Assembly: GCA_964637955.1 (NCBI GenBank)
Contig: CAZWXQ010000004.1
Coordinates: 11,368 to 75,367, forward strand
Direction: 5' to 3'
Length of the DNA stretch: 64,000 bases
Origin: an uncultured Gammaproteobacteria bacterium
GTDB lineage: Bacteria; Patescibacteriota; Microgenomatia; Levybacterales; UBA12049
Shown here piece by piece: positions 7,128-59,619 of this stretch; positions within the stretch are counted from its first letter, which is position 1; each line of letters begins with the position of its first letter. The notes under the pieces were generated by a model. The model saw only the letters and a program-made list of their open reading frames with translations. It was not told where the DNA came from and searched no databases. The translations under genes were made by a program, and so were the position numbers.

Positions 7128-7141
7128 TTATATTGTCAAAT

Positions 7142-7186
7142 AATTTCTTCTTATACTGAATCTCAAAGAGGCGTTTTATTTCTTTA
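7142..7186 (-). pseudogene. Relic copy of the DNA ligase C-terminal coding segment (FKEIKRLFEIQYKKK). Its stop codon has decayed from TAA to TTA.
   Basis: The minus-strand translation matches the ligase C-terminus EIKRLFELQYVKKK. It lies just downstream of the stop of the 7199-8035 gene. Confidence 0.5.
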
Positions 7187-7198
7187 AAACATTTGTAT

Positions 7199-8035
7199 CT
7201 ATGGCTGACCTTTATCCATCTCCCTATAATGTGCATAAATACTTGGAATTAATGCTGGAATCTGCTCGCCTGTCTCCTTAAGCCTTCCCCCTTTAAAAAC
7301 ACTTGGTACATTATCAGGCGTTCGAAAAAAAGACCAGCTTAAAGTCTGCTCTGATCGATAAAAAGTTTCATGTTTTACAATAGCATCTCTTTCCAAATTA
7401 GATACATACTTTAAATCATCTTCTGTAAGTGCATCTTCCAATGTTTTCAAATCTGGTAAAAAAGTAGTTATGCGAAGATTTGGATAAAAACCCATAAGGA
7501 TTCTTCTTGCATGATCAGTTAAAGTTGTTAAATATACGTGTTTTTCTTTATGTGGAGGCAGTTTATCAAATAAGTCTCTTAGTTGTTTTCTAGATATCGA
7601 CCAGTCATCAACCACTGCAACTGGCCTTTTTGGAACACTAACGCTAAGGTCAGAAATTCCTGAAGGAAGAACTCCTGATGAGCGGATTGCAAATTTAGAA
7701 GAAGGCGGCTTAATACCTAATGCCAATAATCTTTGGTAAATCCAGCTTGAACTCTTGTCGTGGCCATACATTAAGAGCGAGTAATCTCTTTCAGCCCAAT
7801 CAGTATTAACTTTTTCTGCCATTTGCTCTAAAGACTTATTAAATGTGGCTTCATCGATATACGTTGTGGCATCAACAACCCTATTTAAAAATCCATCTGG
7901 AGCTCCCCTGTCGCGATGAAAAGCTTCAAAAGCAGCAGCGGTCTCATCTGAAATCGGCAATTTTTTCTCTTGGATTCTTTGGACAAATTCCGATTTAGAT
8001 ACCTGTCCATCTTCATAACTAACCGCATCGATCAT
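7199..8035 (-). CDS. Hypothetical protein of 278 aa, bracketed by relic ligase 3' ends and possibly acquired by insertion
   Basis: Long ORF with no recognised motif. Flanked by duplicated ligase-tail segments at 7142-7186 and 8058-8102. Confidence 0.55.
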   Translation of the reverse strand: MIDAVSYEDGQVSKSEFVQRIQEKKLPISDETAAAFEAFHRDRGAPDGFLNRVVDATTYIDEATFNKSLEQMAEKVNTDWAERDYSLLMYGHDKSSSWIYQRLLALGIKPPSSKFAIRSSGVLPSGISDLSVSVPKRPVAVVDDWSISRKQLRDLFDKLPPHKEKHVYLTTLTDHARRILMGFYPNLRITTFLPDLKTLEDALTEDDLKYVSNLERDAIVKHETFYRSEQTLSWSFFRTPDNVPSVFKGGRLKETGEQIPALIPSIYAHYREMDKGQP

Positions 8036-8057
8036 AAAATAATTTCCTTACTTACGT

Positions 8058-8102
8058 CTATTTCTTTTTATATTGGATTTCGAAGAGACGTTTTATTTCC
8101 TT
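8058..8102 (-). pseudogene. Second relic copy of the DNA ligase C-terminal coding segment (ATDVKEIKRLFEIQYKKK-stop)
   Basis: The C-terminus of the 61-aa ORF 8058-8243 reproduces the ligase C-terminus at the amino-acid level but with divergent codons. Confidence 0.5.
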
Positions 8103-8160
8103 GACGTCAGTAGCACCCGCCTGCAACGCTTTGCATAGCAATGCGGGCAGGTCTTCTGGC

Positions 8161-35114: not shown

Positions 35115-35440
35115 CGCGGGGTAGTGTACAGTGCACGTGAGGCTTAATTTAATGGGCCGTTTTGATAGTAATACCAAAAATGAACTCAGCTATTTCGGTG
35201 AACTCCTAAATTTTATTAAGGACAATACCGAGGGAAGACTCGCTTAGGCGAGAACCCGTAGAGACTACACGCTGGGCTCCTAAGCAATCAAGGATTTATA
35301 CAAAGCTTGCCAAAGGATGAAGATATAGTCCGACACTCTGAGTAATCGGAGATAACAGATAGCATAATCTCACAGGCTAGGCGCAACTCCTAGCCCCGCA
35401 ACAAATTTAATGGAGGCATCAAGCCTCCATTTTCTTTAAT
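35115..35440 (+). ncRNA. Candidate structured non-coding RNA of about 320 nt (class unknown), or a long regulated leader
   Basis: A 450-bp gene-free region carries a consensus promoter, several stable hairpins (ctcgc-ttag-gcgag, ggctagg-cgcaact-cctagcc) and an intrinsic terminator. It may contain a 31-codon small ORF (MGRFDSNTKNELSYFGELLNFIKDNTEGRLA). Confidence 0.35.
35412..35440 (+). terminator. Intrinsic terminator: ggaggc-atcaa-gcctcc followed by a T-run
   Basis: ggaggcatcaagcctccattttcttt on the plus strand. Confidence 0.6.
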
Positions 35441-37592: not shown

Positions 37593-37973
37593 CTATTTTC
37601 CTATAAACAAATTCACCCACTGCTGCCAGTTAGGTGTAACTACCACTACTTTTTCCTCTTTTTTCTTTATTAATTCCTCTGGGACTATTACTCCACTCTC
37701 CCCAGGCTTCACCATAAAAAGCTTATTTCGTGCTTCTTCCTCAATAAAATTTCCACTTTGGACATAAGCAAGCTGAGCCTTTAATTCCTGATTTTTTTGT
37801 TTTTCGAGGCTTAGATCTTCCTTTGCCTTTACAACCAAATCCTGCTTATTCCAAAGATCATAAATTGATCTAACAAGCCCGTTAATTATTACGATACTTA
37901 AAATAATAGTAATAAAATAAGCAACTTTTTTGACTGTTGACGTTGAGCTTAATTTTGTGATATTATAGGCCAT
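37593..37973 (-). CDS. Septum formation initiator (FtsB/DivIC-like) protein
   Basis: N-terminal TM anchor, then a coiled coil (LEKQKNQELKAQLAYVQ), then a C-terminal domain. 126 aa. Confidence 0.6.
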   Translation of the reverse strand: MAYNITKLSSTSTVKKVAYFITIILSIVIINGLVRSIYDLWNKQDLVVKAKEDLSLEKQKNQELKAQLAYVQSGNFIEEEARNKLFMVKPGESGVIVPEELIKKKEEKVVVVTPNWQQWVNLFIGK

Positions 37974-37974
37974 T

Positions 37975-38835
37975 ATGAATCCGATTACATTGGCGAAGGC
38001 CAGTTCAGAGTTTAAGAATTTTCTTAAAGAAAAGGGTCATTCGACCTCAACTATTGTAGCATACGGCAAAGATATTGAGCAGCTCGTAGACTTTTTAAAC
38101 AAGGCTGGAAAACAAAATGTAGATGAAGTAACTCAACAAGACATTGAGGGATTTCTCGCGAAAATGAACGAGGAAGGATACACTCCTAAGTCAATTTCAA
38201 GAAAAATCAACTCAACAAGAACTTTCTACAGATTCCTTAAAAGTAACGGCTATGTTAAAGAAGATCCTTCCCTTCTCGTTGCACACCCAAAGTATCAACT
38301 CGCTCCACCTAGAATCCTTACTCCTACCGAATACAGAGCGCTAAGAGATGCAGCAAGAAATGATGCAAGAATGAGTGCAATCATCGAACTTCTACTTCAG
38401 ACAGGTATAAGGATCGGAGAACTTACCGCTCTAAGACTCTCAGACATCCATAAAGACTCACTTCATGTTCCAGCTATGGAAAAGCACGAAGAAAGAAGTG
38501 TACCCCTTAATAAAAGAGCTCAGGAAGCTTTAAATAAGTATCTAGAAGTGCGCCCTAAGGTAGAAGAAGATCATTTATTTATCACAAAAAGCGGAAAACC
38601 ATTCTTAATCAGAAACATCAGAACTAGTATCGAGAGATATTTTAGACTCGCTGAAATAAAAGATGCTAAAGTAAATGATCTTAGACATACATTTGTAGCC
38701 CACCACCTAAAACACGGAGCTTCAATAGTAACTCTCTCTAAAATCCTAGGACACAAGAGAATCTCAACAACTGAAAGATATCTCGAATACGTTCCAGATA
38801 GAGCTTCAGAATCCCAAGTCCTCTCAGAACTATAA
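37975..38835 (+). CDS. xerD: Tyrosine site-specific recombinase, XerC/XerD-like
   Basis: N-terminal SAM-like core-binding domain. The C-terminal domain carries R...HxxR...Y (DLRHTFVAHHLKHG...TTERYLEY). Confidence 0.85.
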   Translation: MNPITLAKASSEFKNFLKEKGHSTSTIVAYGKDIEQLVDFLNKAGKQNVDEVTQQDIEGFLAKMNEEGYTPKSISRKINSTRTFYRFLKSNGYVKEDPSLLVAHPKYQLAPPRILTPTEYRALRDAARNDARMSAIIELLLQTGIRIGELTALRLSDIHKDSLHVPAMEKHEERSVPLNKRAQEALNKYLEVRPKVEEDHLFITKSGKPFLIRNIRTSIERYFRLAEIKDAKVNDLRHTFVAHHLKHGASIVTLSKILGHKRISTTERYLEYVPDRASESQVLSEL

Positions 38836-38844
38836 ACTTTATTC

Positions 38845-39438
38845 ATGCCTACAGAATCTCCAAAGCATCCAATTGTAATCATTCCTGAGGCTACTTCTAA
38901 ACCTTCAGGCAATCTAAGTATGTTCACTCCTATGGGCGAGGGGCTTTATGGCTTTGAAGCTACAGAGCATGATCCGATTGTCGAAGCTCCAATAACAAGC
39001 GCTGAAGGCGGAACATTATATTTTGGTAACGAAATAAAGAAGGAAGAACTTCTGGCATTAACAAACATAATGGGAATCAGAACTAATCCTAATACTCAAA
39101 AATACATTATTTATGAAATGCAGTCAGATAATTCAATTTCAGATCGTTATCTTCTACAATGGAGATTCGTATCTGATTTTGCGAGTAAATATTTATTCAG
39201 AGATGATGCACCAGATGCGATTCCTGTCCAACCCTTCTCTATTCCAGAAGCAATGTGGAAATTTATAGAAGGTGAAAAAATAAAGTATGGCACGATGTTT
39301 GGAAATCCAGCAATAGCAGGAAAGCTTGGAGGAAATGGCTATTCATTGCAAGAAGAATTAGCTTTCGGAGTAACAGTTGAAAACCCTTATTACGGAGTTT
39401 ATAGAATTTGGAGCAGACCTTGGCTTGTTGGAAAATAG
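38845..39438 (+). CDS. Hypothetical protein
   Basis: 197-aa ORF. Confidence 0.5.
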   Translation: MPTESPKHPIVIIPEATSKPSGNLSMFTPMGEGLYGFEATEHDPIVEAPITSAEGGTLYFGNEIKKEELLALTNIMGIRTNPNTQKYIIYEMQSDNSISDRYLLQWRFVSDFASKYLFRDDAPDAIPVQPFSIPEAMWKFIEGEKIKYGTMFGNPAIAGKLGGNGYSLQEELAFGVTVENPYYGVYRIWSRPWLVGK

Positions 39439-39439
39439 T

Positions 39440-39511
39440 GGGCTAGCTTGGATTTGAACCAAGGACATCTACTTTATAAGAGCCCCGATTTAATCGGGGC
39501 CGCTGAGCTAC
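39440..39511 (-). pseudogene. Degenerate tRNA-like chimera. It has a T-arm plus acceptor 3' half and an anticodon-like hairpin, but no 5' acceptor strand and no D-stem 3' half.
   Basis: Minus strand GTAGCTCAGCGG-CCCCGATTAAATCGGGG-CTCTTATAAAGTAGATGTC-CTTGGTTCAAATCCAAG-CTAGCCCA. It shares two blocks with the neighbouring tRNA (GTAGCTCAGCGG and CTCTTATAAAGTAGATGTC). Confidence 0.4.
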
Positions 39512-39586
39512 TGGTGGGTTAGGATGGAGTCGGACCATCGACATCTACTTTATAAGAGTAGCGCTCTACCGCTGAGCTACTAACCC
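39512..39586 (-). tRNA. tRNA with anticodon TAT (Ile-UAU). CCA is encoded.
   Basis: GGGTTAG-TA-GCTC-AGCGGTA-GAGC-G-CTACT-CTTATAA-AGTAG-ATGTC-GATGG-TCCGACT-CCATC-CTAACCC-A-CCA. Acceptor, anticodon and T stems are fully paired. The T-loop is unusual (UCCGACU). Confidence 0.7.
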
Positions 39587-39831
39587 AAATTCTTACTAAT
39601 TAACCATTCTATATATTTTTTACTTTTATAACTTTTAAGCTTTCTTTCTCTTTTTAAAACTTCTGATTTTGTTTCAAATTTCTCTGTGTAAACTAGCTTA
39701 TCTGTTTTTAAAATCCTAGTAGTTCTAGTCTTACCAATTAGATGCTGATTTAATCTTTGATCTAAATCACCAGTTGATCCAATATAATATCTCCCGGTCT
39801 CTTCATTCTTCAGAATGTATAACCAAAACAT
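39580..39831 (-). CDS. GIY-YIG nuclease family protein (small, YhbQ/UPF0213-like)
   Basis: MFWLYILKNEETGRYYIGSTGDLDQRLNQH is the GIY-YIG catalytic motif. Overlaps the tRNA 5' end by 7 nt. Confidence 0.75.
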   Translation of the reverse strand: MFWLYILKNEETGRYYIGSTGDLDQRLNQHLIGKTRTTRILKTDKLVYTEKFETKSEVLKRERKLKSYKSKKYIEWLISKNLG

Positions 39832-39917
39832 CTAGCTGAGTGAATGTAATTATAACATTTATTATTTCATGCTTAAAGTTTGACAATTAACCTCGTTTTA
39901 TGGTTTAATCACGCCTT

Positions 39918-40412
39918 ATGATCGAATTTGAGGAAGCTTTTGGCACTGACAAACCAAAAATAATTACTCCACGCATGACAGAGCCATTTACATTTAAGGA
40001 TGGCTATACTGTTGATGAAACGCGAGAGAAATTACTTACTGAACTCAAGACTAGATTAATTAAAGTAAGTCCAGATATCACCACTGGGCAAATGGCATGC
40101 TCGATTCAAGATACCCTGGAATTATCTGACGAAGAATTTAGAATAATAATTCCTGAAGGATCAAGCGATGATCATATTACTGATTCTTTTGTAAGAATAT
40201 GGTACATGGCTTCTGTTTATCCTGAAAAAACATTTGCGCAAGAAATGAGAGTTAAACATAATCACCAATCTTACGAGACAACTGAACCAGCTTCACATTT
40301 GGAGTTAATATTAACAGAAGGAATGAATCCTGTATTAATGGAGCACTATAAAATCTTCAGAGGAGATCATTTTTCTAAAGCTGAGCCCGCTCCCCTATTA
40401 CCTGCAAGATAA
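39918..40412 (+). CDS. Hypothetical protein
   Basis: 164-aa ORF. An extended -35 (TTGACAATTAAC) lies upstream. Confidence 0.5.
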   Translation: MIEFEEAFGTDKPKIITPRMTEPFTFKDGYTVDETREKLLTELKTRLIKVSPDITTGQMACSIQDTLELSDEEFRIIIPEGSSDDHITDSFVRIWYMASVYPEKTFAQEMRVKHNHQSYETTEPASHLELILTEGMNPVLMEHYKIFRGDHFSKAEPAPLLPAR

Positions 40413-40468
40413 ATTTATATCTTATAGTTGAATAAAATGAGATATTTTGATATACTCCAACGCTGTAT

Positions 40469-42433
40469 ATGATTGAAAAAGGTCTTCAACCTATATTTGA
40501 CGCCAATGAAGGCAATGGTTCTTTTGGCAAACCTGGAGGCATATCTGACGACGATAGTTATGGTGCTTATGAAAGAGACAAATCCATACCTATTCCTGTT
40601 GTTGTCGATGAAAGACCAGCGCTTGATAGAATTATTGCAGAACTTGATCAGGAAAGAAGAGGTCGATTTCGTCCGACCTATCCAGTATCTCCAATAGAAG
40701 AACCTAAGATTTTTCCCCCAGACACTAAAGAACCAAAGTACTTAGAAGGGTTTAATTCAGGTATAACAGGAGCAAGATTAAAAGTTGCAGGTGTTGATAT
40801 TGCAAGAACAACGATATTTAATCCCCTATCGAGAAACGAGTATGCAGGTGGGACAGAACTTACCCAGGAAGGTATAGAAAAAATTAAACAGTTTTTAAAA
40901 GACAAGGGCTACAGTAATGATGCGCTTGAATATTTAAGTGAGACAGGGGTTTTTGGAAGTATTTTTGCAAACTTAGTACTTAGAACAGAGTCTAATCAAA
41001 TAATAGAAGCAATAAACAATACTGACTTTAAATCTTCAAAAAGAAATTCCTCCGGTTACTATGACTCTATTGAGCCATATTTAGGCTTCTCATATCAAAA
41101 TGAAGCTATAGATGCAAGCATACCGTCTAGTGATAGCAAAAATGACGATCAAAGAAGATTATCAAGAAAAGGTGCGACCAGACTTTTCAGAATAGGCACA
41201 CCTAGAGTTTTAGAAAACTATAAAGTAGCTGATACGCCTATTGTTATTATCGGAGGAGGACCAGCAGGACTTCTTACTGCAAATGCTTTAGTAGATTTAG
41301 GATTCGCTTCTCATAATATTACAGTTCTAGATAAATCGGGTGATTTTGGTGGAATTTGGAAGCAGAAAAATGTTGCGGGAGGATCCAAGAATAATCCTTT
41401 TGACATTAATTTTAGTGGAATCAGGATTGATGCCGCACCAGGTCCCGGATCTTCAATAAGCATCTTTCTTAGGGATATCGCAAAACGTATGGAAAGAAAT
41501 AATGAAGAGGTAGGAGTAGTAAAAGGAAAGGTTACCAGAATAACACCTGGTGATTTAAATCATACAGTGCATTACATAGATGAATCCGGCACTGAAACAA
41601 CTCTAGAAGCTCCGATTGTAATTAACGCTATCGGAAATGGAAAGCCATTACCTCCAAATAGAGAAGGCTATATGACAACTCCAATTAAAGATGGTCAAGC
41701 AGGAATCAGATGGCAGCAAATAATTACTCCTGAAAAAGCTGAAGAATTTAGCGGCAAAACAGTAGTTTTTGTAGGACTTGGAAATAGTACTGCAGAAATG
41801 ATGCAGCAAATTGAAGATTATAATAAATTAGGATACGGCATAAACTACCGCGTTTTAACACACTACCCCTATGAAGCCATTCAAAATCCAGACTCTTTAG
41901 TTAGAATGCCTGATGGAAGAGAATTTAAAGTATTCAGAGACATAAAAACTCCAAATCTAACTAAATTTGAAGGAGATTTACCTGAAATGAGAACTGTTTA
42001 TGATGCTGCTGTAAGAAAAGGAAGAATAATTTCTGATGTAGTCAATTGGGATGTTAAAGACAAATCAATAGTAGCTAGAACTAAAGACGGCACAGAAATA
42101 ACTATTCCGTTTGCACAGCTTTATACTTTAATTGGCTACAGACAAGATCCTGAAGCTCTTAGAGCCATGGGGATGACAGTGGTTGATGAATATACAGGCG
42201 AGATTGCTTATGATTATGACGGTGAGATTCAAAGAAAGCCAGGAGAAGTTGGAAGGAAAAGAGTGCATCCTGGCTACTTCGGTATCGGAGCAGTTCTTAA
42301 ATCACCTTCAAATCCAAATGCAGAAGTAATACCTGGAATTCAACATAGACTTTATGATTTACTTTTTGGAGTAATTATGAGATCAGCTGAATCTGCTGCA
42401 AGAAAAGAAAAACCTCAGAAAAAAAGACGCTAA
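40469..42433 (+). CDS. FAD/NAD(P)-binding oxidoreductase (flavin-monooxygenase-like, two Rossmann motifs) with an uncharacterised N-terminal extension of about 230 aa
   Basis: IVIIGGGPAGLLTANAL (GxGxxG) and VVFVGLGNSTAEMMQQI (second dinucleotide-binding motif). Confidence 0.55.
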   Translation: MIEKGLQPIFDANEGNGSFGKPGGISDDDSYGAYERDKSIPIPVVVDERPALDRIIAELDQERRGRFRPTYPVSPIEEPKIFPPDTKEPKYLEGFNSGITGARLKVAGVDIARTTIFNPLSRNEYAGGTELTQEGIEKIKQFLKDKGYSNDALEYLSETGVFGSIFANLVLRTESNQIIEAINNTDFKSSKRNSSGYYDSIEPYLGFSYQNEAIDASIPSSDSKNDDQRRLSRKGATRLFRIGTPRVLENYKVADTPIVIIGGGPAGLLTANALVDLGFASHNITVLDKSGDFGGIWKQKNVAGGSKNNPFDINFSGIRIDAAPGPGSSISIFLRDIAKRMERNNEEVGVVKGKVTRITPGDLNHTVHYIDESGTETTLEAPIVINAIGNGKPLPPNREGYMTTPIKDGQAGIRWQQIITPEKAEEFSGKTVVFVGLGNSTAEMMQQIEDYNKLGYGINYRVLTHYPYEAIQNPDSLVRMPDGREFKVFRDIKTPNLTKFEGDLPEMRTVYDAAVRKGRIISDVVNWDVKDKSIVARTKDGTEITIPFAQLYTLIGYRQDPEALRAMGMTVVDEYTGEIAYDYDGEIQRKPGEVGRKRVHPGYFGIGAVLKSPSNPNAEVIPGIQHRLYDLLFGVIMRSAESAARKEKPQKKRR

Positions 42434-44787
42434 AGTTGAGCTCTCTCCCCTATTACCTGCTCAATAACGTTTACGTCTTTTCCATACTTAAGACGAGACA
42501 ATTCTTTAATAAGTTCTGAAACTCTTGGATTCATCGCTGCTTTTTCTGCTGTCATGTCTTTAGTCGTATCAAGAGAAAAAGGCGGAACCGGTTCGCCATT
42601 TACGACTGAGCGCATATAGCAATTGAAGCGATCAATGTTTATAAGATCTGACTCATTAAACGTCGGCTGGAACTCGTGCTGAAGATAATTTGCATCTGTA
42701 ACTCCAACACGAAATGAGGCTAGCGTACCCACATTTCCGAAAATAGCATTCTTAACCTCTTCTTCCATCTGCCCTATAAACTGATTGGCAACAATTAGAT
42801 CAAGACGATATTTTCTAGCCTCTGAAAGAATCTGGGCGAAGTCTGGAGTTGCGAAGTTTTGGAACTCGTCAACATAAAGATAAAAATCTTTTCTTTGATC
42901 CATAGCCATATTCTGTCTACTCATCGCAGCAATTAGAATTTTTGGAACTAGAATAAGACCTAAGAAACTTGAATTTTCTTCTCCAATTTTTCCTTTTGAA
43001 AGATTTATAAGTAAAATTTTCTGATTATCCATAACGTCTCTCATATTAAAAGCTGATTGAGATTGGCCTATGATATTTCTCATGGTTTTGTTAGTAACAA
43101 ATCTTCCAAATTTGGATACGATATAATCCAAAGTTTCAGACTTATGAAAATCTGATGTCTGTGCAATCTGATCTGTCCAATAACGTCTAACGATCGGATC
43201 CTGAACGAGAGGAAGCAAACTTTGAACAAACTTTGAATCAGTAAGAACTCTAACAACCTCAATAAATGTACTTCCAGGCTGATACATAACTGTAAGCATC
43301 GCGTTTCTGATCGCATGCTCAAAACGAGGTCCGATAATGCCAGTTTTATTCGGATCATAAAGCTTATACATAAGCCCAACTATACTGGAAACCACATAAT
43401 GCTTTTCTTCCTCAGTATCTGCCTCGAGCATGTTCACTCCCATTGGCCTAGATGTGTCTGAAGGATCAAACAGAATTACATCCTCTGCTCTTTCCGGTGG
43501 AATTTGTTGCAAAATATCTTCGATTAAATCTCCGTGAGGATCAATTACGCCAACACCCTTTCCATTTTTTATATCCTGATTTATCATTTGCTTAAGAAAC
43601 TCTGTTTTTCCAGTTCCTGTTTTTCCGATGATATACATATGCCTTCTTCTGTCATCGTCCCCAATAAATACTTCTTTGGAAAGTCCTCTATATGAACTCT
43701 TGCCCAGAAACAATCCCTCGGTAGCTATATTTGCAGCCGCAGGAGCACGCTTAGAGTTAACCCAGAAAATGTTTGGGGTTGTGATTGCTTTATTTGGGAA
43801 GTGAAAAAGAGTAGCCAGTTCTTCAGAATTTAAAACTCCGGTGTGTGATTTCTTAGGCATAAATCTGTAAACAAACTCATCCATAAATGCCTTTTTATTT
43901 CTAAGTTTATTTTGAGTAAACTCATTCAAGCCTTCGAACTGAGCAAAATTATGCTCTATATTATTTAAATGTGCCTCTGCAGACTCATGTGTAGTTGAAG
44001 AGACCACAATTCTAATTACAGCATCAAATCCAGGTTTTCCGATTTTACTTTCAATTCCTTCCAGCTCTTTTGGATCAACGGAATATTTTGCGGTTTCAGG
44101 ATTTGATTCATCTTTTTTCGTGTGAGAGATATGTGCTCTCCCTGCTTTTTTCCAATCTGAACCCGCTCCTGTAATTGCAATCTGAATTGCTGCTCCCTCC
44201 CCCTCTGTCATCTTTGCAAGAGTTGAAGTAATAGAGCTCATTGGGTCTGTTGCTAAATCTTTATAAACTTTAAGAGGTTTAAAATTTTCCTCCTTAAGCC
44301 TTAATGAAGCAAAAGCGACATGTGAATTCTGTGCAAAAATATTGTAATCATTTCCAACCACAAATCCCTCTTTAAGAGATTTTTTTTCGCTAACTTCTGT
44401 AATTTCAGCATCAGGATAAGCTCCGTTTATTTGTTTTTCTACGAAATCTTTATATTTATTTGGAGTGGAAACATAGTATCTGATATCTCCTGGCATTCCC
44501 ACAATTTCAAAAGTCATCGTAGGCTCTGCATGCATAAAAGAGAATCTGCCACCACCATGAACTGCAACAAAACTTGAGAATAATTGCTCTGCTGCATCAA
44601 TTTTTATTTCATTATCACGAGGCAAAGCTATTTGAAGAAGAGTAGAATCAAGCGCAGCTTCTTTGCTTACTTTAAATTTATAGTTTTGCATAAAAAAATA
44701 AACAGCAACACTACCCACTACTGCCAGAAGAGCAGAAAAAGTTGCCAAGAAAATTAAGAAAACTATAATAGCTAATATATCTCCCAT
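42430..44787 (-). CDS. Membrane-anchored P-loop ATPase of the FtsK/HerA/VirD4-VirB4 (type IV secretion or DNA-translocation) superfamily
   Basis: N-terminal TM helix. Walker A IIGKTGTGKTEF followed by VIDPHGDL. Walker B LYVDEFQNF. RKYRLDLIVANQ. 785 aa. Confidence 0.6.
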   Translation of the reverse strand: MGDILAIIVFLIFLATFSALLAVVGSVAVYFFMQNYKFKVSKEAALDSTLLQIALPRDNEIKIDAAEQLFSSFVAVHGGGRFSFMHAEPTMTFEIVGMPGDIRYYVSTPNKYKDFVEKQINGAYPDAEITEVSEKKSLKEGFVVGNDYNIFAQNSHVAFASLRLKEENFKPLKVYKDLATDPMSSITSTLAKMTEGEGAAIQIAITGAGSDWKKAGRAHISHTKKDESNPETAKYSVDPKELEGIESKIGKPGFDAVIRIVVSSTTHESAEAHLNNIEHNFAQFEGLNEFTQNKLRNKKAFMDEFVYRFMPKKSHTGVLNSEELATLFHFPNKAITTPNIFWVNSKRAPAAANIATEGLFLGKSSYRGLSKEVFIGDDDRRRHMYIIGKTGTGKTEFLKQMINQDIKNGKGVGVIDPHGDLIEDILQQIPPERAEDVILFDPSDTSRPMGVNMLEADTEEEKHYVVSSIVGLMYKLYDPNKTGIIGPRFEHAIRNAMLTVMYQPGSTFIEVVRVLTDSKFVQSLLPLVQDPIVRRYWTDQIAQTSDFHKSETLDYIVSKFGRFVTNKTMRNIIGQSQSAFNMRDVMDNQKILLINLSKGKIGEENSSFLGLILVPKILIAAMSRQNMAMDQRKDFYLYVDEFQNFATPDFAQILSEARKYRLDLIVANQFIGQMEEEVKNAIFGNVGTLASFRVGVTDANYLQHEFQPTFNESDLINIDRFNCYMRSVVNGEPVPPFSLDTTKDMTAEKAAMNPRVSELIKELSRLKYGKDVNVIEQVIGERAQL

Positions 44788-44790
44788 AAA

Positions 44791-45294
44791 TTATGCCTCC
44801 GAAGGTTTTGATTGTCCGATTAAGTTTCTACCGAGATTTTTTATAACTTCTAAAGCTCTCCACTTATCTGCGCTTGTCACTGGTTTTTCTTTATATTGAA
44901 GCTGAGCTGACTGCAAATCCGCAGGCAAATTCCCATAAACTGGTCCTGTTGGAACAGTTTCGGTTACACCAGCATTTTTTGCATCGTGATCAAGGTCTGG
45001 AAAATCTTTTTTTACTTTAATCATGTCTTTAACTTCCCCGCCCACATTTGGATCTGAAAATTCACCTGACTGCTCTATGATAGGCTGACTTTCAAAATTT
45101 TGATTTTCAGCTGGACCCGAATCAATCACTGGCCCAACTTCTGGCCTTGCAGATGACACGCCTGCGTTAACAGAATTAAAATCTTGCTGATCCTCCGCAG
45201 GAACTTGATTTTGCGCCGGCTGTGCAGGCACTGCAGGTGCAGTATTATTCACTGGATTTTGTTGATTTTGATTTGGATTAATTGGATCTATCAT
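44791..45294 (-). CDS. Pro/Gln/Asn-rich low-complexity protein, in an operon with the ATPase
   Basis: 167-aa ORF ending 4 nt upstream of the ATPase start. Confidence 0.45.
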   Translation of the reverse strand: MIDPINPNQNQQNPVNNTAPAVPAQPAQNQVPAEDQQDFNSVNAGVSSARPEVGPVIDSGPAENQNFESQPIIEQSGEFSDPNVGGEVKDMIKVKKDFPDLDHDAKNAGVTETVPTGPVYGNLPADLQSAQLQYKEKPVTSADKWRALEVIKNLGRNLIGQSKPSEA

Positions 45295-45434
45295 ATACTC
45301 CTTAGACTTAGAAATAGTTTAGTATACCTTGAACTTCATTTTGCATGATTTTTATACAAAATGAAGTGAAAAGGTATATACAACTATCTTACCATAGATA
45401 AATAAATTTATACTTAAAATAAGACTACAAAAAC

Positions 45435-46751
45435 TTAACAACCGAACTTAAAACCACAGCCACATTCTTTAGTCCTATTTTCTTGGGCAACTTCCATCTC
45501 ACTTGCAAACCTTCCTTTACATCCCGGGCAATGATAATGCTTATCTATCGTGGTCTGCTGACAATCTTCACACTTCTTATTAATCTCATCGAATTCCTTT
45601 ACGCTGAATCTTGCATCTTCTACTAAATTCGATAGCATAGGCTTCATCAACTTAACTCCACTTGAGGTTCCACATCCCACTTCTTTTTTCTCTACTTCCC
45701 TTTTTCCAAGTATCTCAATTTCTTCCTCTGACAGATTCGCTGGAAAAACAAAAACTAATTGATTTGGATTTCTTTCATATTCTGCTACCAAATCATCAGC
45801 CAAATTGAACATTCCATTAAAATTAATTCCAAATTTATATTCATCATTTTCCGACAAACCATCAATTGCTCCATCTATTAGCTGGTCTGCGGATGGAATA
45901 ATTACGCTATGAAAAAAATTCGTATCAGTATGTTTATGGTCCTTATGTAAAAATTTATGTACATCTTCAGCCGTTTCAAAAATCCCTGAAATATCAAAAG
46001 GACTTGCAAGAAAATCGTGATCTTCAAACCCTTTTAATCCAAATAATTCATTATATTCATCAATAGTTAATCCTGAACTAAACCTATTAACCGCAATTTT
46101 TCCATCCTTCCACATAAAAACATCATAAAAATTATATTGATAAATTGATCCCTTCTCGCCTTGCGGAGAAATGGATAAAACGCTTTTTCCATCCCTGAGC
46201 ATTTCTTCAATTTTCTGAAATCCTTCAATTTCAGCTGACTCACGTGGAAAATCAATTGGATTTCCATGAATTCTTCTATAATCCCTGCCTCTTTTAAAGG
46301 AATTAATTGCAGGTTCATTCATATCTTGACCCCAAAGCTCCCCATCTTTCATGTCGTAATAAAAAGTATTCGTCAAAACATTTAATCTCTCTGCAAGGAT
46401 GGTCTGAAGCTGTTTCTTGGTGTATGCATCCAGTCGCTCTTTTTCTTGAGCTCTAATTTCCGGTGGAAGTAATTCCAAAGCTTGATAGGCTTTAAAATCA
46501 AAAGTATGGTCATAGGCAACAATTTCCTGTTTTTCTCTATCCGGAATAGGCGCTAAATCTGCACGAATTTCAATTGGAGGCGGCATGACGCCAGCGTCAT
46601 ATGAAGAAGCTGCTGCTGGATATACCATAAATGACGAAGCTAAGACTGCACCTGCTGCAGTTCTCCCAAGCTTATATTTTAAAGAGTTTTCTCTCTCTTC
46701 TCTTAAGCGCCTGTCTCTATCTAAATTTCCAATTCCCTGCCCGCGTTCCAT
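45435..46751 (-). CDS. Hypothetical protein with an N-terminal signal/anchor and a C-terminal Cys-rich cluster
   Basis: C-terminus CGTSSG...CEDCQ...HYHCPGCKG...ECGCGFKFGC. Starts 2 nt after the pduO-like stop. Confidence 0.5.
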   Translation of the reverse strand: MERGQGIGNLDRDRRLREERENSLKYKLGRTAAGAVLASSFMVYPAAASSYDAGVMPPPIEIRADLAPIPDREKQEIVAYDHTFDFKAYQALELLPPEIRAQEKERLDAYTKKQLQTILAERLNVLTNTFYYDMKDGELWGQDMNEPAINSFKRGRDYRRIHGNPIDFPRESAEIEGFQKIEEMLRDGKSVLSISPQGEKGSIYQYNFYDVFMWKDGKIAVNRFSSGLTIDEYNELFGLKGFEDHDFLASPFDISGIFETAEDVHKFLHKDHKHTDTNFFHSVIIPSADQLIDGAIDGLSENDEYKFGINFNGMFNLADDLVAEYERNPNQLVFVFPANLSEEEIEILGKREVEKKEVGCGTSSGVKLMKPMLSNLVEDARFSVKEFDEINKKCEDCQQTTIDKHYHCPGCKGRFASEMEVAQENRTKECGCGFKFGC

Positions 46752-46753: not shown

Positions 46754-47332
46754 TTATTTTTTCTTCCAGATCTTTTCTTTTTGTTTTTCTTTGAAATTAA
46801 CGAATCTAGCCATCGTAAAAAGAAGATCTGACAAGCGGTTAAGATAGACAATTATTGTATTGTCGATTTCCTCTGTCCTTGCCAAATCTACGATCCTTCT
46901 CTCAGCCCGTCTAGCAATCGTACGCGCAACGTGAAGACTTGCTCCCCCTCTTCCACCGCCTGGCAAAATAAACTGCGTTAAAGGAGGCATTTCAGAAGTT
47001 AATTCATCGATTAATTTCTCTATTTGCTCTGGCCTTGAAGCAATCTGTGGAGCTGGAAGAGTTGAACTAACAGCAAGAGAAGAACCAATCTCCAGTAAAT
47101 CATTTTGGATTTCAATTAATTCTTGAATGACCAATTCCCAATGACCAATTCCTTTTTTTGTTTTTTGGGATTTGGGATTTGGGATTTGTGTAATTGCGAA
47201 ACCAATTGACGAGTTAAGTTCATCAATCGTTCCATAAGTCTCCACTTTTTTATCAGACTTAAGAACTCTTTTGCCATCAAAAAGAGATGTTTTTCCACTG
47301 TCTCCTGTTCTTGTATAAATTGGTTTAGACAT
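46754..47332 (-). CDS. pduO: ATP:cob(I)alamin adenosyltransferase, PduO type
   Basis: N-terminal IYTRTGDSGKTSLFDG is the PduO/MMAB signature. 192 aa, including a repeat-encoded insertion. Confidence 0.85.
   Translation of the reverse strand: MSKPIYTRTGDSGKTSLFDGKRVLKSDKKVETYGTIDELNSSIGFAITQIPNPKSQKTKKGIGHWELVIQELIEIQNDLLEIGSSLAVSSTLPAPQIASRPEQIEKLIDELTSEMPPLTQFILPGGGRGGASLHVARTIARRAERRIVDLARTEEIDNTIIVYLNRLSDLLFTMARFVNFKEKQKEKIWKKK
47129..47186. repeat. Direct 10-mer repeat (gaccaattcc x2) plus GGGATTT x3 heptamer repeat inside the pduO-like coding sequence
   Basis: gaccaattcccaatgaccaattcc ... gggatttgggatttgggattt. Encodes QIPNPKSQKTKKGIGHWELVIQ in the minus-strand gene. Confidence 0.8.
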
Positions 47333-47852
47333 AAAAAAATCGTTTAGAAAATCTTAAAGCGAGCTCATAACTTCCGAAAAATAAACCCACAAATATCAAA
47401 TCTCCCATTATTGTATTCCTAAAAAATGGTATAGCCATGAAATATGCCTGAACCATACCATCTATTGTTTTGGGGTATAAAGATGTTGCATACCAGAAAT
47501 TAAAATTTGTAAGTAGAAAAAAGATTATTGATGAAATAATGGAAGCACCTAAAATACTTGCCGTATTTTTATGATTTCTTAGCCATAGCCCAATAATTCC
47601 TGATATTAAAAAACTAGCATATACGAGAGGCGTACTGGGACTAAATCCTAAAAAAATATCTGAAGCAATCATAGCCAAAATAGGAATAATTAAAGCATAT
47701 TTTTTATTAAAATAAACTCCTCCAAACAAGGCCATAGCGGCTATAGGTGCAATATTTGCTGGATGAGGAATCAATCTTAAAAATGCACCAAACAATATAG
47801 CAATAAATGGAAGAATAAAATATTCAATTTTTAGTAATTTTGAATTTTCCAT
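47325..47852 (-). CDS. Polytopic membrane protein, possible ECF-type or vitamin-transporter S-component (B12 context)
   Basis: 175 aa with about 5-6 TM helices. Lies between the DUF4430-like gene and pduO. Confidence 0.4.
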   Translation of the reverse strand: MENSKLLKIEYFILPFIAILFGAFLRLIPHPANIAPIAAMALFGGVYFNKKYALIIPILAMIASDIFLGFSPSTPLVYASFLISGIIGLWLRNHKNTASILGASIISSIIFFLLTNFNFWYATSLYPKTIDGMVQAYFMAIPFFRNTIMGDLIFVGLFFGSYELALRFSKRFFYV

Positions 47853-48244
47853 TCTATTAAATCTCCTTCCTGAGTCATGTAATCAGCAGGCCCAACCTGG
47901 GATTCTTTTCCATTAACAATAAATGCCCAAAACTCTCTTTTATTTTCATCTGCCTGCCTACCATTAATCGAGGTAACCAAGCCTGATGTTACCTGCTTGA
48001 TAGTTGTTTTTTCTTTGAGAACTTCTAATGCACTTTTGCCTTCAACTCCCTGATACGAAAAACTATTATTCTGAGCTGAAACTGTAGGCCTTGAGCTTAA
48101 TTTTTTATTCTGCTGATTATAAAAAACAAATAAGACACCCCCGGCTAATATAATTAGAATTAAAATAATTAAAAATAATTTATTTCTTTTTCCCATAAAA
48201 AAAACTCCCCGTTTGTCCTGTAAGGACTCTCGAGAAGTCGACAA
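47831..48244 (-). CDS. DUF4430-like (transcobalamin beta-domain-like) small membrane-anchored protein
   Basis: C-terminal FWAFIVNGKESQVGPADYMTQEGDLIEWK fits the DUF4430 pattern (W.y.VNG....G....l..GD.I.W). Immediately downstream of a cobalamin-riboswitch-like leader. Confidence 0.5.
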   Translation of the reverse strand: MSTSRESLQDKRGVFFMGKRNKLFLIILILIILAGGVLFVFYNQQNKKLSSRPTVSAQNNSFSYQGVEGKSALEVLKEKTTIKQVTSGLVTSINGRQADENKREFWAFIVNGKESQVGPADYMTQEGDLIEWKIQNY

Positions 48245-48380
48245 ATAGATCTTGCTCGAGAATAAAATAAGGTGGTTTTCCGACTTTACGGTAGCGGCAC
48301 TGTGTGGGATTTCCAGCTCATCATTATTGATGAGCAGTCACCCGTCTTGCCCAATCCTTATTGCAAATATTTTAGTATCT
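48245..48380 (-). promoter_or_regulatory. Cobalamin (B12) riboswitch candidate in the leader of the DUF4430 / S-component / pduO operon
   Basis: The minus-strand RNA contains GGGCAAGACGGGUGA...GGAAAUCCCACACAGUGCCGCUACCGUAAAG, matching the conserved AGGGAA..GGUG.AA.UCC....C.G..CCCGC.ACUGUAA core. The genomic context is B12-related. Confidence 0.5.
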
Positions 48381-48435
48381 AAATAGTAGGCATTAGAGAC
48401 TTCCAAACATATCTCTAATATCTACTACTCAAACA

Positions 48436-50835
48436 CTAACATTCACTATGTCCACATGAATAGCATTTTCCACAACCTTCTTCGTATACGAAACTGCTAG
48501 TTCCACATTCTGGGCAAATATCCATCGTGTGTGTTTTTGGCTTTGTGTCCATGGTTATTCCCTCCTGAAGTGGAAGCTGTGTAAGAACTGTAATTTCTTC
48601 TTTTTCTTCTATTTGCTCTGAGACAATTGGCGCATCAGCTGGAGCTGAAGCAACTGGTGTTACTACCCCTGGAGCGAGCTTATCCTCCACTACTCCATTT
48701 ACCTTAAATGCATACTGCTTAGCTAGAACCTTGGCAATAGCATCTGGCAGAGATCTAACTCGGTTTTCTCCAAAACCTACACTTCTTGCTCCTCCTATTC
48801 CGGAGAGCTGACTTATAACTTGCCTTATCCTCTCGCGCGGCGGCAGGTTGCCTGCGAGACGAAGGTTTAGAGACACCATGCGACCAAGTGCATCAGCCAT
48901 AGCAGATAAATCTGATCCTGGCTTTCCAATCGTGATAAAGACTTCAAAAGGTTCTCCATTTTGATCGTGATTTAATGTGATATATGTGTCTCCAACTGGA
49001 GTTTGAGTCTTATATGTAACTCCTTCTACCATCATAGGCCTTGGTGCACGAACAATCTCCTTAGGAAGAACTGCAGCTTTAGCTTCCTCTTTTGGTTTTT
49101 CATCAACATGAGAAAGCACACCTTGTCGCGAACCGTCTCTGAAATAAGTAACACCCTTTAATCCGTTATCATAAGCCATCATGTAAAGATTTTTTACATC
49201 TTCTACACTATGTCCATTTGGCGCGTTCACTGTTTTAGAAATAGAAGAATCGATATATTCCTGCGCAATTGCTTGAACCATAACATGCTCTTCTGGAGTC
49301 AGGTCATTTGATGAAGCAAAATAATCTGGCTTTGCTTCCCCTGGATGTTTTTTCTGCCACTCTTCATAAAGCGGGTGGAACATTCTATGCTCCCCTAGCC
49401 TGTCTCGTCTGATAAATTCAAACTCATAAACTGGCTCAACTCCAGATGAAACTCCAGAAATCAAACTTGTAGTTCCGGTTGGAGCAATAGTAAGAAGTAC
49501 GGCATTTCTGATTCCATTTTTGGCAATCCTTGCTTGCAACCATTTCGGAAGATTCTGAATGTGATATCCCTGAAGATATTTTTCTTTATCAAACTTAGGA
49601 AATGCTCCTTTTTCCTTTGCAATATCACTTGAAGCCTCATAAGCATTATTCCTGAGAGTTTCAAAAATTTTCTTAATGGTTTCCTCAGACTCTGGTGCGC
49701 CGTATCTAAGCTTCATCTTAATAAGTGCATCTGCAAGCCCTAAAATGCCTAAACCAGTTCTTCTAATGTCTTTTGCTACCTGCTCATTTTCTTTGAAGAA
49801 ATAATACGTGTCATCTATTACATTATCCAAAAATCTCATTGCGACTTTTACATCCTTACCAAATGAAACGAAGTCAAATTTTTCGTTTTTTACATAGGCT
49901 GCTAGATTCATGGCACCTAGATTGCAAACTGCCCATGCTCCAAGAGGCTGTTCTCCACATGGATTTGTAGCAATAAGTTTTTCAAAATACCAAGTGTTGC
50001 TTCTTTTATTGGATCTTTCGAGGAAGTGAAGGCCTGGCTCAGCACTTCGCCATGCTGCTGTACAAATAAGATCCCATAATTCTTTTGCTTTTACCGTTTT
50101 ATAAACTTTTGTTTTTCTTCCAGCTTTTTTCCAACCAATTAAATCTCCATCCCAATCTTTATCATAATTTGGATCATCTAGATCTGGGTATTCTAGATTC
50201 CAATCAGCATCTGCTTTTACAGCTTCCATGAAAGCATCAGATACACAAACCGAGAGATTTGCGCCATTAATCTTAGTCAAATCTTCTTTTACGGTAATAA
50301 ATTCCTCAACATCAGGATGCCAATCATGAAGCATAAGCATAGTTGCTCCACGGCGGCTTCCACCCTGCTGTACAACATCATGAGTTGCATAAGAGAACAA
50401 GCCAGCCCATGTAACTGGACCTGAAGAAAATCCATTAACTTTCTTTACCCTTGCACCGCGAGGCCTTAGAGAAGATAAATTCAAACCAACTCCACCTGAG
50501 CGAGACTGAATCTCAACTAATTGCTTTAAGGAATCAATTATTCCTTCACGACTATCTTTTGGAGATGGAATAACAAAACAATTAAAATAAGTTACTTGGA
50601 AATCTGTTCCTGCACCTGAGAGAATTCTACCGCCTGGAACGAACTTGAAGTCGCTCATTACATCATAGAATTTTTTCTCCCAAACTCCACGAGCTGTTTT
50701 TCTTTCCTGCTTAGCAATACCCTTAGCTACTCTTCTCCACATTTCTTCTGGAGTTTTTTCCAATGCATTACCTTCTTTATCTTTTAAAGAATATCTGTCT
50801 AAAAATACTTTTTCTCTTACGCCATCAAGTTTCAT
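48436..50835 (-). CDS. nrdJ: Adenosylcobalamin-dependent (class II) ribonucleotide reductase
   Basis: N-terminal VFLDRYSLKDKEGNALEKTPEEMWRRVAKGIA is typical of NrdJ. NPCGEQPL active-site cysteine region. C-terminal Cys4 zinc ribbon. 799 aa. Confidence 0.8.
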   Translation of the reverse strand: MKLDGVREKVFLDRYSLKDKEGNALEKTPEEMWRRVAKGIAKQERKTARGVWEKKFYDVMSDFKFVPGGRILSGAGTDFQVTYFNCFVIPSPKDSREGIIDSLKQLVEIQSRSGGVGLNLSSLRPRGARVKKVNGFSSGPVTWAGLFSYATHDVVQQGGSRRGATMLMLHDWHPDVEEFITVKEDLTKINGANLSVCVSDAFMEAVKADADWNLEYPDLDDPNYDKDWDGDLIGWKKAGRKTKVYKTVKAKELWDLICTAAWRSAEPGLHFLERSNKRSNTWYFEKLIATNPCGEQPLGAWAVCNLGAMNLAAYVKNEKFDFVSFGKDVKVAMRFLDNVIDDTYYFFKENEQVAKDIRRTGLGILGLADALIKMKLRYGAPESEETIKKIFETLRNNAYEASSDIAKEKGAFPKFDKEKYLQGYHIQNLPKWLQARIAKNGIRNAVLLTIAPTGTTSLISGVSSGVEPVYEFEFIRRDRLGEHRMFHPLYEEWQKKHPGEAKPDYFASSNDLTPEEHVMVQAIAQEYIDSSISKTVNAPNGHSVEDVKNLYMMAYDNGLKGVTYFRDGSRQGVLSHVDEKPKEEAKAAVLPKEIVRAPRPMMVEGVTYKTQTPVGDTYITLNHDQNGEPFEVFITIGKPGSDLSAMADALGRMVSLNLRLAGNLPPRERIRQVISQLSGIGGARSVGFGENRVRSLPDAIAKVLAKQYAFKVNGVVEDKLAPGVVTPVASAPADAPIVSEQIEEKEEITVLTQLPLQEGITMDTKPKTHTMDICPECGTSSFVYEEGCGKCYSCGHSEC

Positions 50836-50837
50836 AA

Positions 50838-50866
50838 TTTTATTTCAATGTCATTCCGAACTTGTT
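50838..50866. repeat. REP-like palindromic repeat, short form
   Basis: tgtcattccgaacttgtttcggaatc: an 8-bp stem attccgaa/ttcggaat with a 5-nt loop. Confidence 0.55.
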
Positions 50867-50873
50867 TCGGAAT

Positions 50874-51272
50874 CTAATTTACCAATTTCCTTTCCGTTTG
50901 ATTTTCTGCTGATACTACTTCAAGCATAGCTGCTCCCAATTCTTTTTTATTATGATTTAAGCTAAATTTATAATCCCCTTCTGACTCGATAGGAAGTCCT
51001 GCAAGCTCTACTATTAAATTATTTTTGCCATTTTCCCCAGTTGTACTATTTAGATTAAAAGAAGCAATCTCTTTCGTTCCTTTTTTAAAACTTAAATCAA
51101 GTTTATATTCTGTAAATGTTTCTCCACTTATAGTTGCTACAAAAAATGCTCTGACAAGTGTCGTTGGAAAAGTGACAACATTTAATTTGTCAAAAATTCC
51201 ATCAATACTTAGCTTCCCTTCTCGGGATACTGATGCATAGTCTGATAATGTTATTAAATTTACTTTTAACAT
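50874..51272 (-). CDS. Hypothetical protein between nrdR and nrdJ
   Basis: 132-aa ORF. Confidence 0.5.
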   Translation of the reverse strand: MLKVNLITLSDYASVSREGKLSIDGIFDKLNVVTFPTTLVRAFFVATISGETFTEYKLDLSFKKGTKEIASFNLNSTTGENGKNNLIVELAGLPIESEGDYKFSLNHNKKELGAAMLEVVSAENQTERKLVN

Positions 51273-51275
51273 ATT

Positions 51276-51725
51276 TTAATTAGTTAGTTTTTTTACTTCT
51301 TTCTCAAAATCTTCTATGTCTACAAACCTTTTGAAGACGCTAGAAAACCTTATGTATGCTATTTTATCAAGCTTCTTAAGTCTGATAGAAACTAATTGCC
51401 CGATTTTCTTACTGTCTACTTCTACAGACTCCCCACCTCGAAGTTCTCTTTCTATTTCAGTAACGATTTTTTCAACATCGTCTACTGTAACTGTAGTTTT
51501 CTCACAAGATCTAAGTATTCCATTTTTTAATTTGTCGCGGTCAAATTGTTCGCGTCTTCCGTCTTTCTTAATAACAACAAGATTAATGTTTTCTACTCTC
51601 TCATAAGTAGTAAATCTTTTCTCACACTTAACGCAATTACGTCTTCTTCTGATTGTTTCTAAATCTTCAGAATCCCTAGTCTCTACAACCTCTGTTTCTC
51701 TTGATCCGCAATATGGACATTTCAT
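51276..51725 (-). CDS. nrdR: Transcriptional repressor NrdR
   Basis: MKCPYCGSRETEVVETRDSEDLETIRRRRNCVKCEKRFTTYE (zinc ribbon plus ATP-cone). 149 aa. Confidence 0.9.
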   Translation of the reverse strand: MKCPYCGSRETEVVETRDSEDLETIRRRRNCVKCEKRFTTYERVENINLVVIKKDGRREQFDRDKLKNGILRSCEKTTVTVDDVEKIVTEIERELRGGESVEVDSKKIGQLVSIRLKKLDKIAYIRFSSVFKRFVDIEDFEKEVKKLTN

Positions 51726-59586: not shown

Positions 59587-59619
59587 ATAAAGACCCCTCT
59601 TTTAAAACTTTCGGCTATT

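Follow-up and report, generated by a model that had tools for sequence, protein, structure and literature searches.

The closest described counterparts of the locus considered here are the type IV coupling protein (T4CP) homologues of Patescibacteria, of which the passages of Quinonero-Coronel et al. (2025, PMC12102498) devoted to them count 5,713, only 148 of them near virB4; their role is left open there, and possible exaptation is raised. The locus is a pair of genes, encoding a membrane-anchored ATPase of 785 amino acids (aa) and a 167-aa protein directly upstream of it, in a 64,000-nt stretch of contig CAZWXQ010000004.1 (assembly GCA_964637955.1, positions 11,368 to 75,367), which I will refer to as the window. 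Judged against those passages, it belongs to the same organisms and its ATPase is a protein of the same kind: chromosomal, without a relaxase, and away from virB4. I regard it as a chromosomal copy of a T4CP-like ATPase already catalogued across the candidate phyla radiation (CPR)/Patescibacteria, and the locus as a fairly ordinary one with one modest new detail.

The open reading frame (ORF) of the ATPase occupies 42430..44787 on the minus strand and combines a transmembrane anchor, a DUF8128 N-terminal domain and a VirD4/TrwB-like NTPase. The ORF of the small partner (44791..45294) and that of a 438-aa protein (45435..46751) are on the same strand. A sequence-only reading of this DNA had described three such ORFs at 42430-46751, with Walker motifs, a transmembrane helix and tight spacing, all of which are present. 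The genes are real, given that the ATPase has more than 7,000 homologues, and gene structure, family membership, conservation and synteny are established. The same reading had taken the genes for a possible translocation module of unknown role with uncharacterised partners, which overstates matters, since the N-terminal domain of the ATPase is already described as DUF8128 and Patescibacteria T4CP homologues away from virB4 are counted in the passages cited above.

To judge by its sequence, the 785-aa protein is a homologue of VirD4/TrwB/TraG-type T4CPs with a family-specific N-terminal domain. Pfam families TrwB_AAD_bind (37.7 bits, gathering score 20.5, aa 380-676) and TraG-D_C (25.8 bits, gathering score 22) are both matched above threshold, as is DUF87, which covers the Walker A region only. 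The precomputed Pfam record for the exact protein gives PF26449 (DUF8128), and many close homologues have a precomputed match to T4SS-DNA_transf (T4SS standing for type IV secretion system). Among NCBIfam families, TraD and VirD4-like families rank top. A profile of 53 family members searched against the PDB found DotL (1.8e-7) and TrwB (1e-6), with HerA next, and found no FtsK and no VirB4. The identical protein is encoded on public contigs. Close homologues carry the names Candidatus Levybacteria or Levyibacteriota, that is, Patescibacteria of the class Microgenomatia, and those from Levybacteria are called [quoted passage not shown] or "TraM recognition domain-containing protein". The earlier placement of the ATPase as a membrane-anchored member of the VirD4/HerA/FtsK superfamily stands and can be narrowed to T4CP-like.

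The protein begins with a membrane anchor at aa 1-34 (44686..44787, minus strand, as are the other features of the protein given here), recognized by hydropathy and falling within a helix that is continuous over residues 2-46 in the structural model. An N-terminal hydrophobic segment is found in 52 of 53 diverse family members, and a K-rich flank, read by the positive-inside rule, suggests an N-out/C-in orientation. The DUF8128 alpha/beta domain follows at aa ~41-345 (43753..44667) and is specific to the family: an exhaustive search with aa 1-350 returned 1,778 clusters (50% identity) at E <= 1e-3 and 775 at E <= 1e-10, whose intact members are mostly 790-870 aa long and all have the same C-terminal NTPase. 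That NTPase contains Walker A (GKTGTGKT, aa 388-395, 43603..43626), IDPHGDL at aa 415-421, and Walker B (YLYVDE, aa 636-641, 42865..42882), which continues as (Y)LYVDEFQNF to aa 645. An all-alpha insertion at aa ~456-575 (43063..43422) stands at the place of the all-alpha domain of TrwB. G388, G393 and K394 of Walker A are invariant in the 53 sequences, down to 34% identity, as are D640, E641 and F642 of Walker B and residues of other motifs; the catalytic motifs are intact, and the invariant residues support probable catalytic competence.

The AlphaFold model of the monomer is confident (predicted local distance difference test, pLDDT, 88; predicted template modelling score 0.78) and contains the long helix at the N-terminus, an alpha/beta domain spanning roughly aa 48-330, and a RecA-like domain in which helices 459-573 lie between strands 437-440 and 591-595. 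Such a RecA-like domain, with conserved Walker A and Walker B motifs and an all-alpha domain set into it, is expected of a T4CP, and the ATPase has it. By its fold the protein falls in the VirB4/VirD4 clade, with no decision between VirB4 and VirD4: fold ranking gives 30.1 for the C-terminal domain of VirB4, 28.4 for that of DptH, 27.3 for TrwB and 25.4 for HerA, followed by DotL (23.9), Cag-beta (22.1), TcpA (17.6) and FtsK (17.3). Foldseek returns full-length TrwK/VirB4 on top, and aligns TrwB to the C-terminal half of the ATPase only. The span of the former alignment, ~860 columns at a template-modelling score (TM-score) of only 0.30, hints that DUF8128 may resemble the N-terminal domain of VirB4, a likeness that is only suggestive.

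Orthology to VirB4 itself was considered and is ruled out by sequence. In comparison with VirB4/TrwK/TcpF-type proteins, with which the full-length similarity does not go beyond that TM-score of 0.30, the ATPase has no AAA_10 or CagE_TrbE_VirB Pfam match at E <= 0.01. A plasmid of Bacillus subtilis (NZ_OX419581) is instructive here. It encodes a 913-aa "DUF87 domain-containing protein", 24% identical to the ATPase, whose alignment with aa 89-738 of the latter (E 1e-41) takes in N-terminal domain and NTPase alike; a replication-relaxation family gene and a TcpD/TcpE/AAA_10 transfer cluster lie immediately downstream of it. With the VirB4-type ATPase (AAA_10) that this plasmid also encodes, the family shows similarity only around Walker A (hhalign probability 17%). 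Since the plasmid protein in the coupling-protein slot matches and the VirB4-type protein does not, the family corresponds to the coupling-protein slot. The 913-aa protein differs from the ATPase of the window in being plasmid-borne, in lacking a homologue of the small partner, and in having a longer C-terminal tail.

HerA, whose NCBIfam model gives 14.5 bits against a cut-off of 970, was also considered and set aside, there being no nuclease partner nearby. The related notion that the protein is an anti-phage defence ATPase of the HerA, DptH or MADS type might draw on a PADLOC match to mad8 (5.5e-18). That match lies in the NTPase core only, as is so for all such matches, the core being what these proteins share; there are no PADLOC matches for five neighbouring proteins, and neither proposed partner has one; and a defence island would not be expected to have a fixed locus, the conservation of a core gene and housekeeping genes around it. 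I give this explanation next to no credence.

The sequence-only reading had also allowed that the ATPase might turn out to be a housekeeping FtsK with a gamma domain. It did not: there is no FtsK_SpoIIIE or gamma match at E <= 0.01, and FtsK is ruled out equally by NCBIfam, the PDB profile search and the fold ranking. A more refined version of the idea is that a T4CP-derived translocase substitutes for FtsK at the septum of Microgenomatia, in chromosome segregation or in Xer-mediated dimer resolution. With FtsK/SpoIIIE the ATPase has in common the ASCE superfamily, the presumed character of a membrane-anchored hexameric translocase, and the proximity of Xer: a convergent XerC/D-type recombinase lies downstream of the ATPase in 40 of 54 loci, often at 130-800 nt, the septation gene DivIC/FtsB adjoins that recombinase, and the ATPase is as conserved as core enzymes. 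Against these stand the missing FtsK matches just given, a modelled fold that resembles VirB4, TrwB and HerA far more than it does FtsK, and an orientation in which ATPase and Xer are convergent, not co-transcribed. Xer adjacency, moreover, was seen in none of nine contexts sampled beyond the set of 80 Microgenomatia loci, and TM7x, a CPR organism, has an annotated ftsK (PMC10768705). Replacement of FtsK is in my judgment decidedly unlikely.

The T4CP homologue is accompanied by a second conserved gene. The 167-aa protein is soluble, largely disordered and rich in Pro, Gln and Asn (P, N and Q make up 49 of its 167 residues, or 29%), with a C-terminal amphipathic helix containing a Trp. At the junction of the two genes (44788..44800, minus strand), a GGAGG at 44800-44796, within the small gene and 8 nt 5' of the ATPase start codon, is followed by the TAA of the small gene (44793-44791), a 3-nt spacer, and the ATG of the ATPase at 44787. 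Both the composition and the coupling had been described in the sequence-only reading, and conservation can now be added to them. In 69 of 75 loci, an iterated hidden Markov model (HMM) seeded with the small protein finds a homologue as the next gene upstream of the ATPase, the distance to the ATPase start being mostly -8 to +30 nt. Searched against 4,961 six-frame ORFs, the HMM found 72 of its 74 matches at that position, the other two being the window gene and a neighbouring fragment. Synteny is reciprocal: three of three members of the small family chosen independently of the ATPase precede a DUF8128 ATPase. Members share the motifs KE..P, PE.P.EV..AGV and LPLT, and the helix at their C-terminus contains a W that is almost invariant. 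A hydrophobic segment occurs in none of 31 members, and neither a Pfam domain nor a name was found among 135 database homologues. Sequences and gene order together show that in Microgenomatia the ATPase has a genuine, conserved partner in the 167-aa protein. Beyond that class, the position of the small gene is often taken by a small protein, acidic or rich in Q and P, for which Pfam has no match. The small ORFs upstream of two distant ATPases (loci L083 and L086) were tried as homologues, and since the HMM finds no match in them, homology beyond Microgenomatia is unproven.

The ATPase behaves as a core gene. Its median identity over the 80 Microgenomatia loci is 70%, the corresponding medians being 67.5% (NrdJ), 72% (Xer) and 53% (PduO). 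Its chromosomal position is fixed, and an order common to Levybacteria and related Microgenomatia, with ATPase identities of 63-81%, runs NrdR, NrdJ, the B12 genes (DUF4430, DUF6580, PduO) and then, after a large gene that varies, the small gene and the ATPase. From the fixed position and from an identity on a par with NrdJ and Xer, I conclude that the ATPase is vertically inherited as core genes are and is unlike a mobile element or a defence island.

It might nonetheless be asked whether the locus is the remnant of an integrated conjugative or mobilisable element beside a tyrosine recombinase and a tRNA. Integrative conjugative elements typically carry T4CPs; a tyrosine recombinase, a tRNA-Ile, a GIY-YIG ORF and uncharacterised genes all lie within 5 kb; and the recombinase matches phage integrase PHROGs. 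However, the recombinase (37975..38835, plus strand; the NCBIfam models XerD and XerC give it 187 and 181 bits, in neither case reaching the equivalog cut-off) is of Xer type and is as conserved as a core gene, with its median identity of 72%. The gene order and identities just described are shared across Levybacteria and related Microgenomatia, no relaxase is found in the window, and the composition is flat (GC 0.33-0.41, without anomaly), and the only variable part is the stretch of ~3.6 kb that sets Xer off from the ATPase in the window. An element remnant is extremely improbable. The window as a whole reads as ordinary chromosome, its genes including FtsH, two class A penicillin-binding proteins, PGK, a MurD-like ligase, TGT, an ATP-dependent DNA ligase, NrdR, NrdJ and DivIC.

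Several features of this neighbourhood deserve mention in their own right. The stretch 38845-42433 between Xer and the ATPase, lacking in most Levybacteria loci, holds ORFs of 197 and 164 aa, a tRNA-Ile(TAT) at 39512-39586 overlapped by a GIY-YIG-like ORF of 83 aa (39580-39831), and a 654-aa FAD/NAD(P) oxidoreductase with an N-terminal extension of 250 aa, whose stop codon overlaps that of the ATPase by 4 nt. On the far side of Xer, DivIC/FtsB is divergent from the recombinase (37593-38835) and in most relatives lies two genes from the T4CP, giving the surroundings a cell-division flavour. On the other side, a cluster for B12 salvage and class II ribonucleotide reductase (46754-51725: NrdR, DUF6941, NrdJ, DUF4430, DUF6580, PduO) adjoins the small/ATPase pair across Levybacteria and Gottesmanbacteria-like genomes (L003-L094), even when the B12 genes are reordered. 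There is no obvious functional reason for this link, which is missing in more distant lineages (none of the six most distant ATPase contexts has the B12 cluster).

The third gene of the window locus fares differently from the second. The 438-aa ORF begins 2 nt past the stop codon of the gene for a PduO-type cob(I)alamin adenosyltransferase (46754..47332, minus strand), which ends the B12/ribonucleotide reductase cluster, and an AT-rich gap of 140 nt (45295..45434) divides these two genes from the small/ATPase pair. Since a consensus scan of the locus for promoters and terminators gave no signal above shuffled expectation, I infer only that this gap may contain an internal promoter. The protein is soluble and restricted in lineage. 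It has eight Cys (360, 394, 397, 408, 411, 430, 432 and 438), seven of them in the last 45 residues, where they form a cluster CxxC...CPGC...CGCGFKFGC (aa 394-438; 45438..45572, minus strand); C408 and C411 are invariant in the family, and the terminal CGFKFGC is kept in most members. With weak NCBIfam matches to YvyF/HypA zinc ribbons, the C-terminus looks like a zinc ribbon. The sequence-only reading was correct as to the Cys cluster and the 2-nt distance and mistaken as to a signal or anchor: the segment proposed, GRTAAGAVLASSFMVYPAAASS, is below the threshold for a transmembrane helix, and none of 14 family members has a hydrophobic segment, not even when that threshold is relaxed. The proposed segment falls within an N-terminal extension of 75 residues found in only the three closest homologues, with pLDDT below 50 in the model.

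Of the two partner proteins that had been proposed for the ATPase, then, the 167-aa protein holds and the 438-aa protein does not. The 438-aa family has only 14 database homologues. Where PduO lies upstream it is found at 32 of 48 loci, and where PduO is missing at none of 10; sister lineages have a non-homologous soluble protein of 590-760 aa at the same place, whereas the small family is found in 45 of the 48 and in 7 of the 10. Because it is absent from all ten loci without PduO and is swapped in sister lineages, the 438-aa protein does not qualify as a conserved partner; its gene is an accessory one, restricted to part of Levybacteria, translationally coupled to PduO and outside the conserved unit. 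Comparisons that might have linked the large proteins to something else failed: hhalign gives a probability of 2.6% that the 438-aa family is homologous to the 590-760-aa proteins of Gottesmanbacteria-like genomes and 0.1% for a C-terminal W-helix shared by small and large proteins, and the 590-760-aa proteins, which have no Pfam domains, are not polytopic in the manner of VirB6. As a separate observation, these proteins (L070-L080, L092-L094) conserve W[LI]LLAIIWxLAMIRExG ... GVIFAxxS at the extreme C-terminus, the remainder evolving fast.

These facts bear on the possibility, close to what the sequence-only reading had in mind, that the three genes form an effector cassette, with the large protein (438 aa in the window) as substrate or effector, the small protein as adaptor and the ATPase as receptor. 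T4SS substrates typically bear their signals at the extreme C-terminus, and both large families keep motifs there, CGFKFGC in one and WLLLAIIWxLAMIRE...GVIFA in the other. Further, a soluble Pfam-less protein of 340-800 aa precedes the small gene in most loci, evolving rapidly (median identity 32%) and exchanged between lineages. The small/ATPase pair persists, however, in the ten loci without PduO, where the 438-aa family is always missing, and in the 16 of 48 with PduO where it is missing too; the 438-aa gene is 140 nt from the pair as against 2 nt from PduO; and the 438-aa protein gives no structural or sequence sign of effector activity. The cassette is very unlikely.

Haloarchaeal plasmids encode the N-terminal domain and the NTPase in two neighbouring genes, beside a pilin and a second T4SS ATPase. 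In Natrinema thermotolerans (plasmid NZ_CP101874, 7911-12165), a 399-aa DUF8128-like gene overlaps the start of a 1,021-aa NTPase gene, with a pilin and a 1,107-aa T4SS ATPase upstream, a split resembling that of VirB4 into TrsD and TrsE. Of the six most distant contexts, two have genes with a T4SS_pilin domain within 7 kb of the ATPase and four are purely housekeeping. In one distant lineage (L086), 7 kb separate the DUF8128 ATPase from a T4SS_pilin gene (576-1337) upstream of it; the N-terminal transmembrane region of that ATPase (P0156) itself matches T4SS_pilin weakly, with 25.2 bits against a gathering score of 26.6. A strong match to phrog_5156 extends over aa 224-745 of the ATPase (E 9.7e-86; tblastn identity 20-23%). 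The proteins concerned (Bacillus phage G gp156, TP-84, and CP-51/JL-like phages) differ in being phage-encoded and in that similarity begins in the last third of the N-terminal domain. Homologues of at least 750 aa occur in phages of the Bacillus group, lytic and temperate, in early or replication regions; that of Geobacillus phage TP-84 is at 6197-8461. In viral contigs, a profile search found 12 distant relatives, most of those that have a single host ORF being 400-460 aa long, and single-sequence patterns found no close relatives; the N-terminal-domain query matched only a truncated fragment (L107) among them, and the small-partner HMM matched none.

Taking these together with the features of the family, the model I favor is that of an orphan T4CP translocase with a disordered partner, serving a T4SS encoded elsewhere, to which I would assign a probability of about 0.55. 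By analogy with TrwB, VirD4 and DotL, the ATPase would form a membrane-associated hexamer and would use NTP hydrolysis to recruit a substrate, protein or DNA, and push it towards a translocation channel. The most probable channel would be the chromosomal MPF_FATA-like T4SS that Patescibacteria encode elsewhere; in Microgenomatia, according to the passages of PMC12102498 concerned with it, a chromosomal T4SS usually lies near dnaA. The small protein would most likely bind the ATPase, as an adaptor, regulator or substrate, via its short motifs and W-helix. In this model the oligomeric state, the substrate, the binding of the partner and the connection to a T4SS are all what characterized relatives would lead one to expect.

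A number of points weigh against the model. NCBIfam scores for T4CP equivalogs are far under their cut-offs (the best 53 bits as against 366), and since the curated cut-offs are not reached, the ATPase must represent a divergent T4CP subfamily. It is ~15% identical to TrwB (R388), VirD4, DotL/IcmO and Cag-beta, from which it differs further in an extra cytoplasmic N-terminal domain of ~300 aa and in the absence of an adjacent relaxase or T4SS, and it has one transmembrane helix where T4CPs usually have two. VirB4, VirB6, pilin and relaxase families were not found in the 64-kb window, either by Pfam among about 35 ORFs or in the precomputed annotation; nor was the FtsK family among those ORFs. 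This bears out the earlier statement that there is no canonical conjugation locus here, no T4SS, pilin or VirB6 family being present. Association with a relaxase and/or a VirB4-type T4SS, expected of a T4CP, is seen for the plasmid homologue, in part for the distant members near pilin genes, and not in the window. That the 167-aa protein binds the ATPase is likewise something I infer. Finally, in Ca. Southlakia epibionticum, passages of PMC12102498 describe the T4CP homologue as dispensable for epibiotic growth and T4SS genes as essential, and the authors of the transposon sequencing study saw no coupling protein in the Southlakia T4SS cluster (PMC10633639).

The link to a T4SS is thus the weakest step, and it is for this reason that T4SS-independent and FtsK-like roles are kept as rivals. 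A homologue that is dispensable where the T4SS is essential suggests that the family may act independently of it, alone or with some other envelope machine (type IV pili, ComEC), in DNA uptake, in export of DNA or protein, or in a role like that of the phage homologues. The same would account for the mere 148 of 5,713 homologues near virB4, for the nearly full-length match to phrog_5156, for homologues in Bacillus and Geobacillus phages that have no T4SS, and for the four of six distant contexts with housekeeping genes only. But every characterized relative in the clade either docks at a T4SS channel or works on the ends of DNA, plasmid and haloarchaeal homologues are found in transfer clusters, and T4CP genes often lie far from virB4 even in working systems, as noted in passages of PMC12102498. 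A T4SS-independent translocase is a candidate worth keeping, though an unlikely one. A bolder proposal is that the small/ATPase pair, or whatever takes its position outside Microgenomatia, is an autonomous T4SS-independent core machine of ultra-small bacteria, either as a T4CP with a VirB4-like N-domain that replaces FtsK or as a device that delivers the upstream protein (here that of 438 aa) to the host by way of its C-terminal motif, with the small protein as adaptor. This is speculative and I consider it unlikely.

Other features were noticed elsewhere in the window. At 35115-35406 (plus strand), a tRNA gene missed by ARAGORN is split by a group I intron (Rfam RF00028, 71.9 bits, 35135-35352). 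Splicing in silico at 35144|35363, such that the 5' exon ends in U and the intron in G, produces a valid tRNA with anticodon CAT, an identity that depends on the true splice site, since neighbouring junctions give Ile(TAT), Leu(TAA) and Ala(AGC). The two class A penicillin-binding proteins, of 726 and 892 aa, are in tandem at 57406-62298 (plus strand), and the ATP-dependent DNA ligase, of archaeal/eukaryotic type, is at 8161-9888 (minus strand).

What the present analysis adds to the homologues already catalogued is a small partner family, core-like conservation at a fixed locus, and hints of a VirB4-like two-domain layout, together with full-length homologues in Gram-positive plasmids, haloarchaeal plasmids and phages and the demotion of the 438-aa protein to a variable neighbour. 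The passages of PMC12102498 on these homologues do not mention the DUF8128 domain, a small disordered partner, or a fixed position with respect to NrdJ/B12 genes and Xer. Patescibacteria depend on host cells, a T4SS is essential in one cultivated species (as described in passages of the same paper), and there are about two T4CP homologues per genome. The small protein, as a candidate adaptor or substrate, offers a handle on what the orphan T4CPs may recruit, and the value of the locus lies in the lead it provides for interaction and genetic work rather than in a new kind of system.

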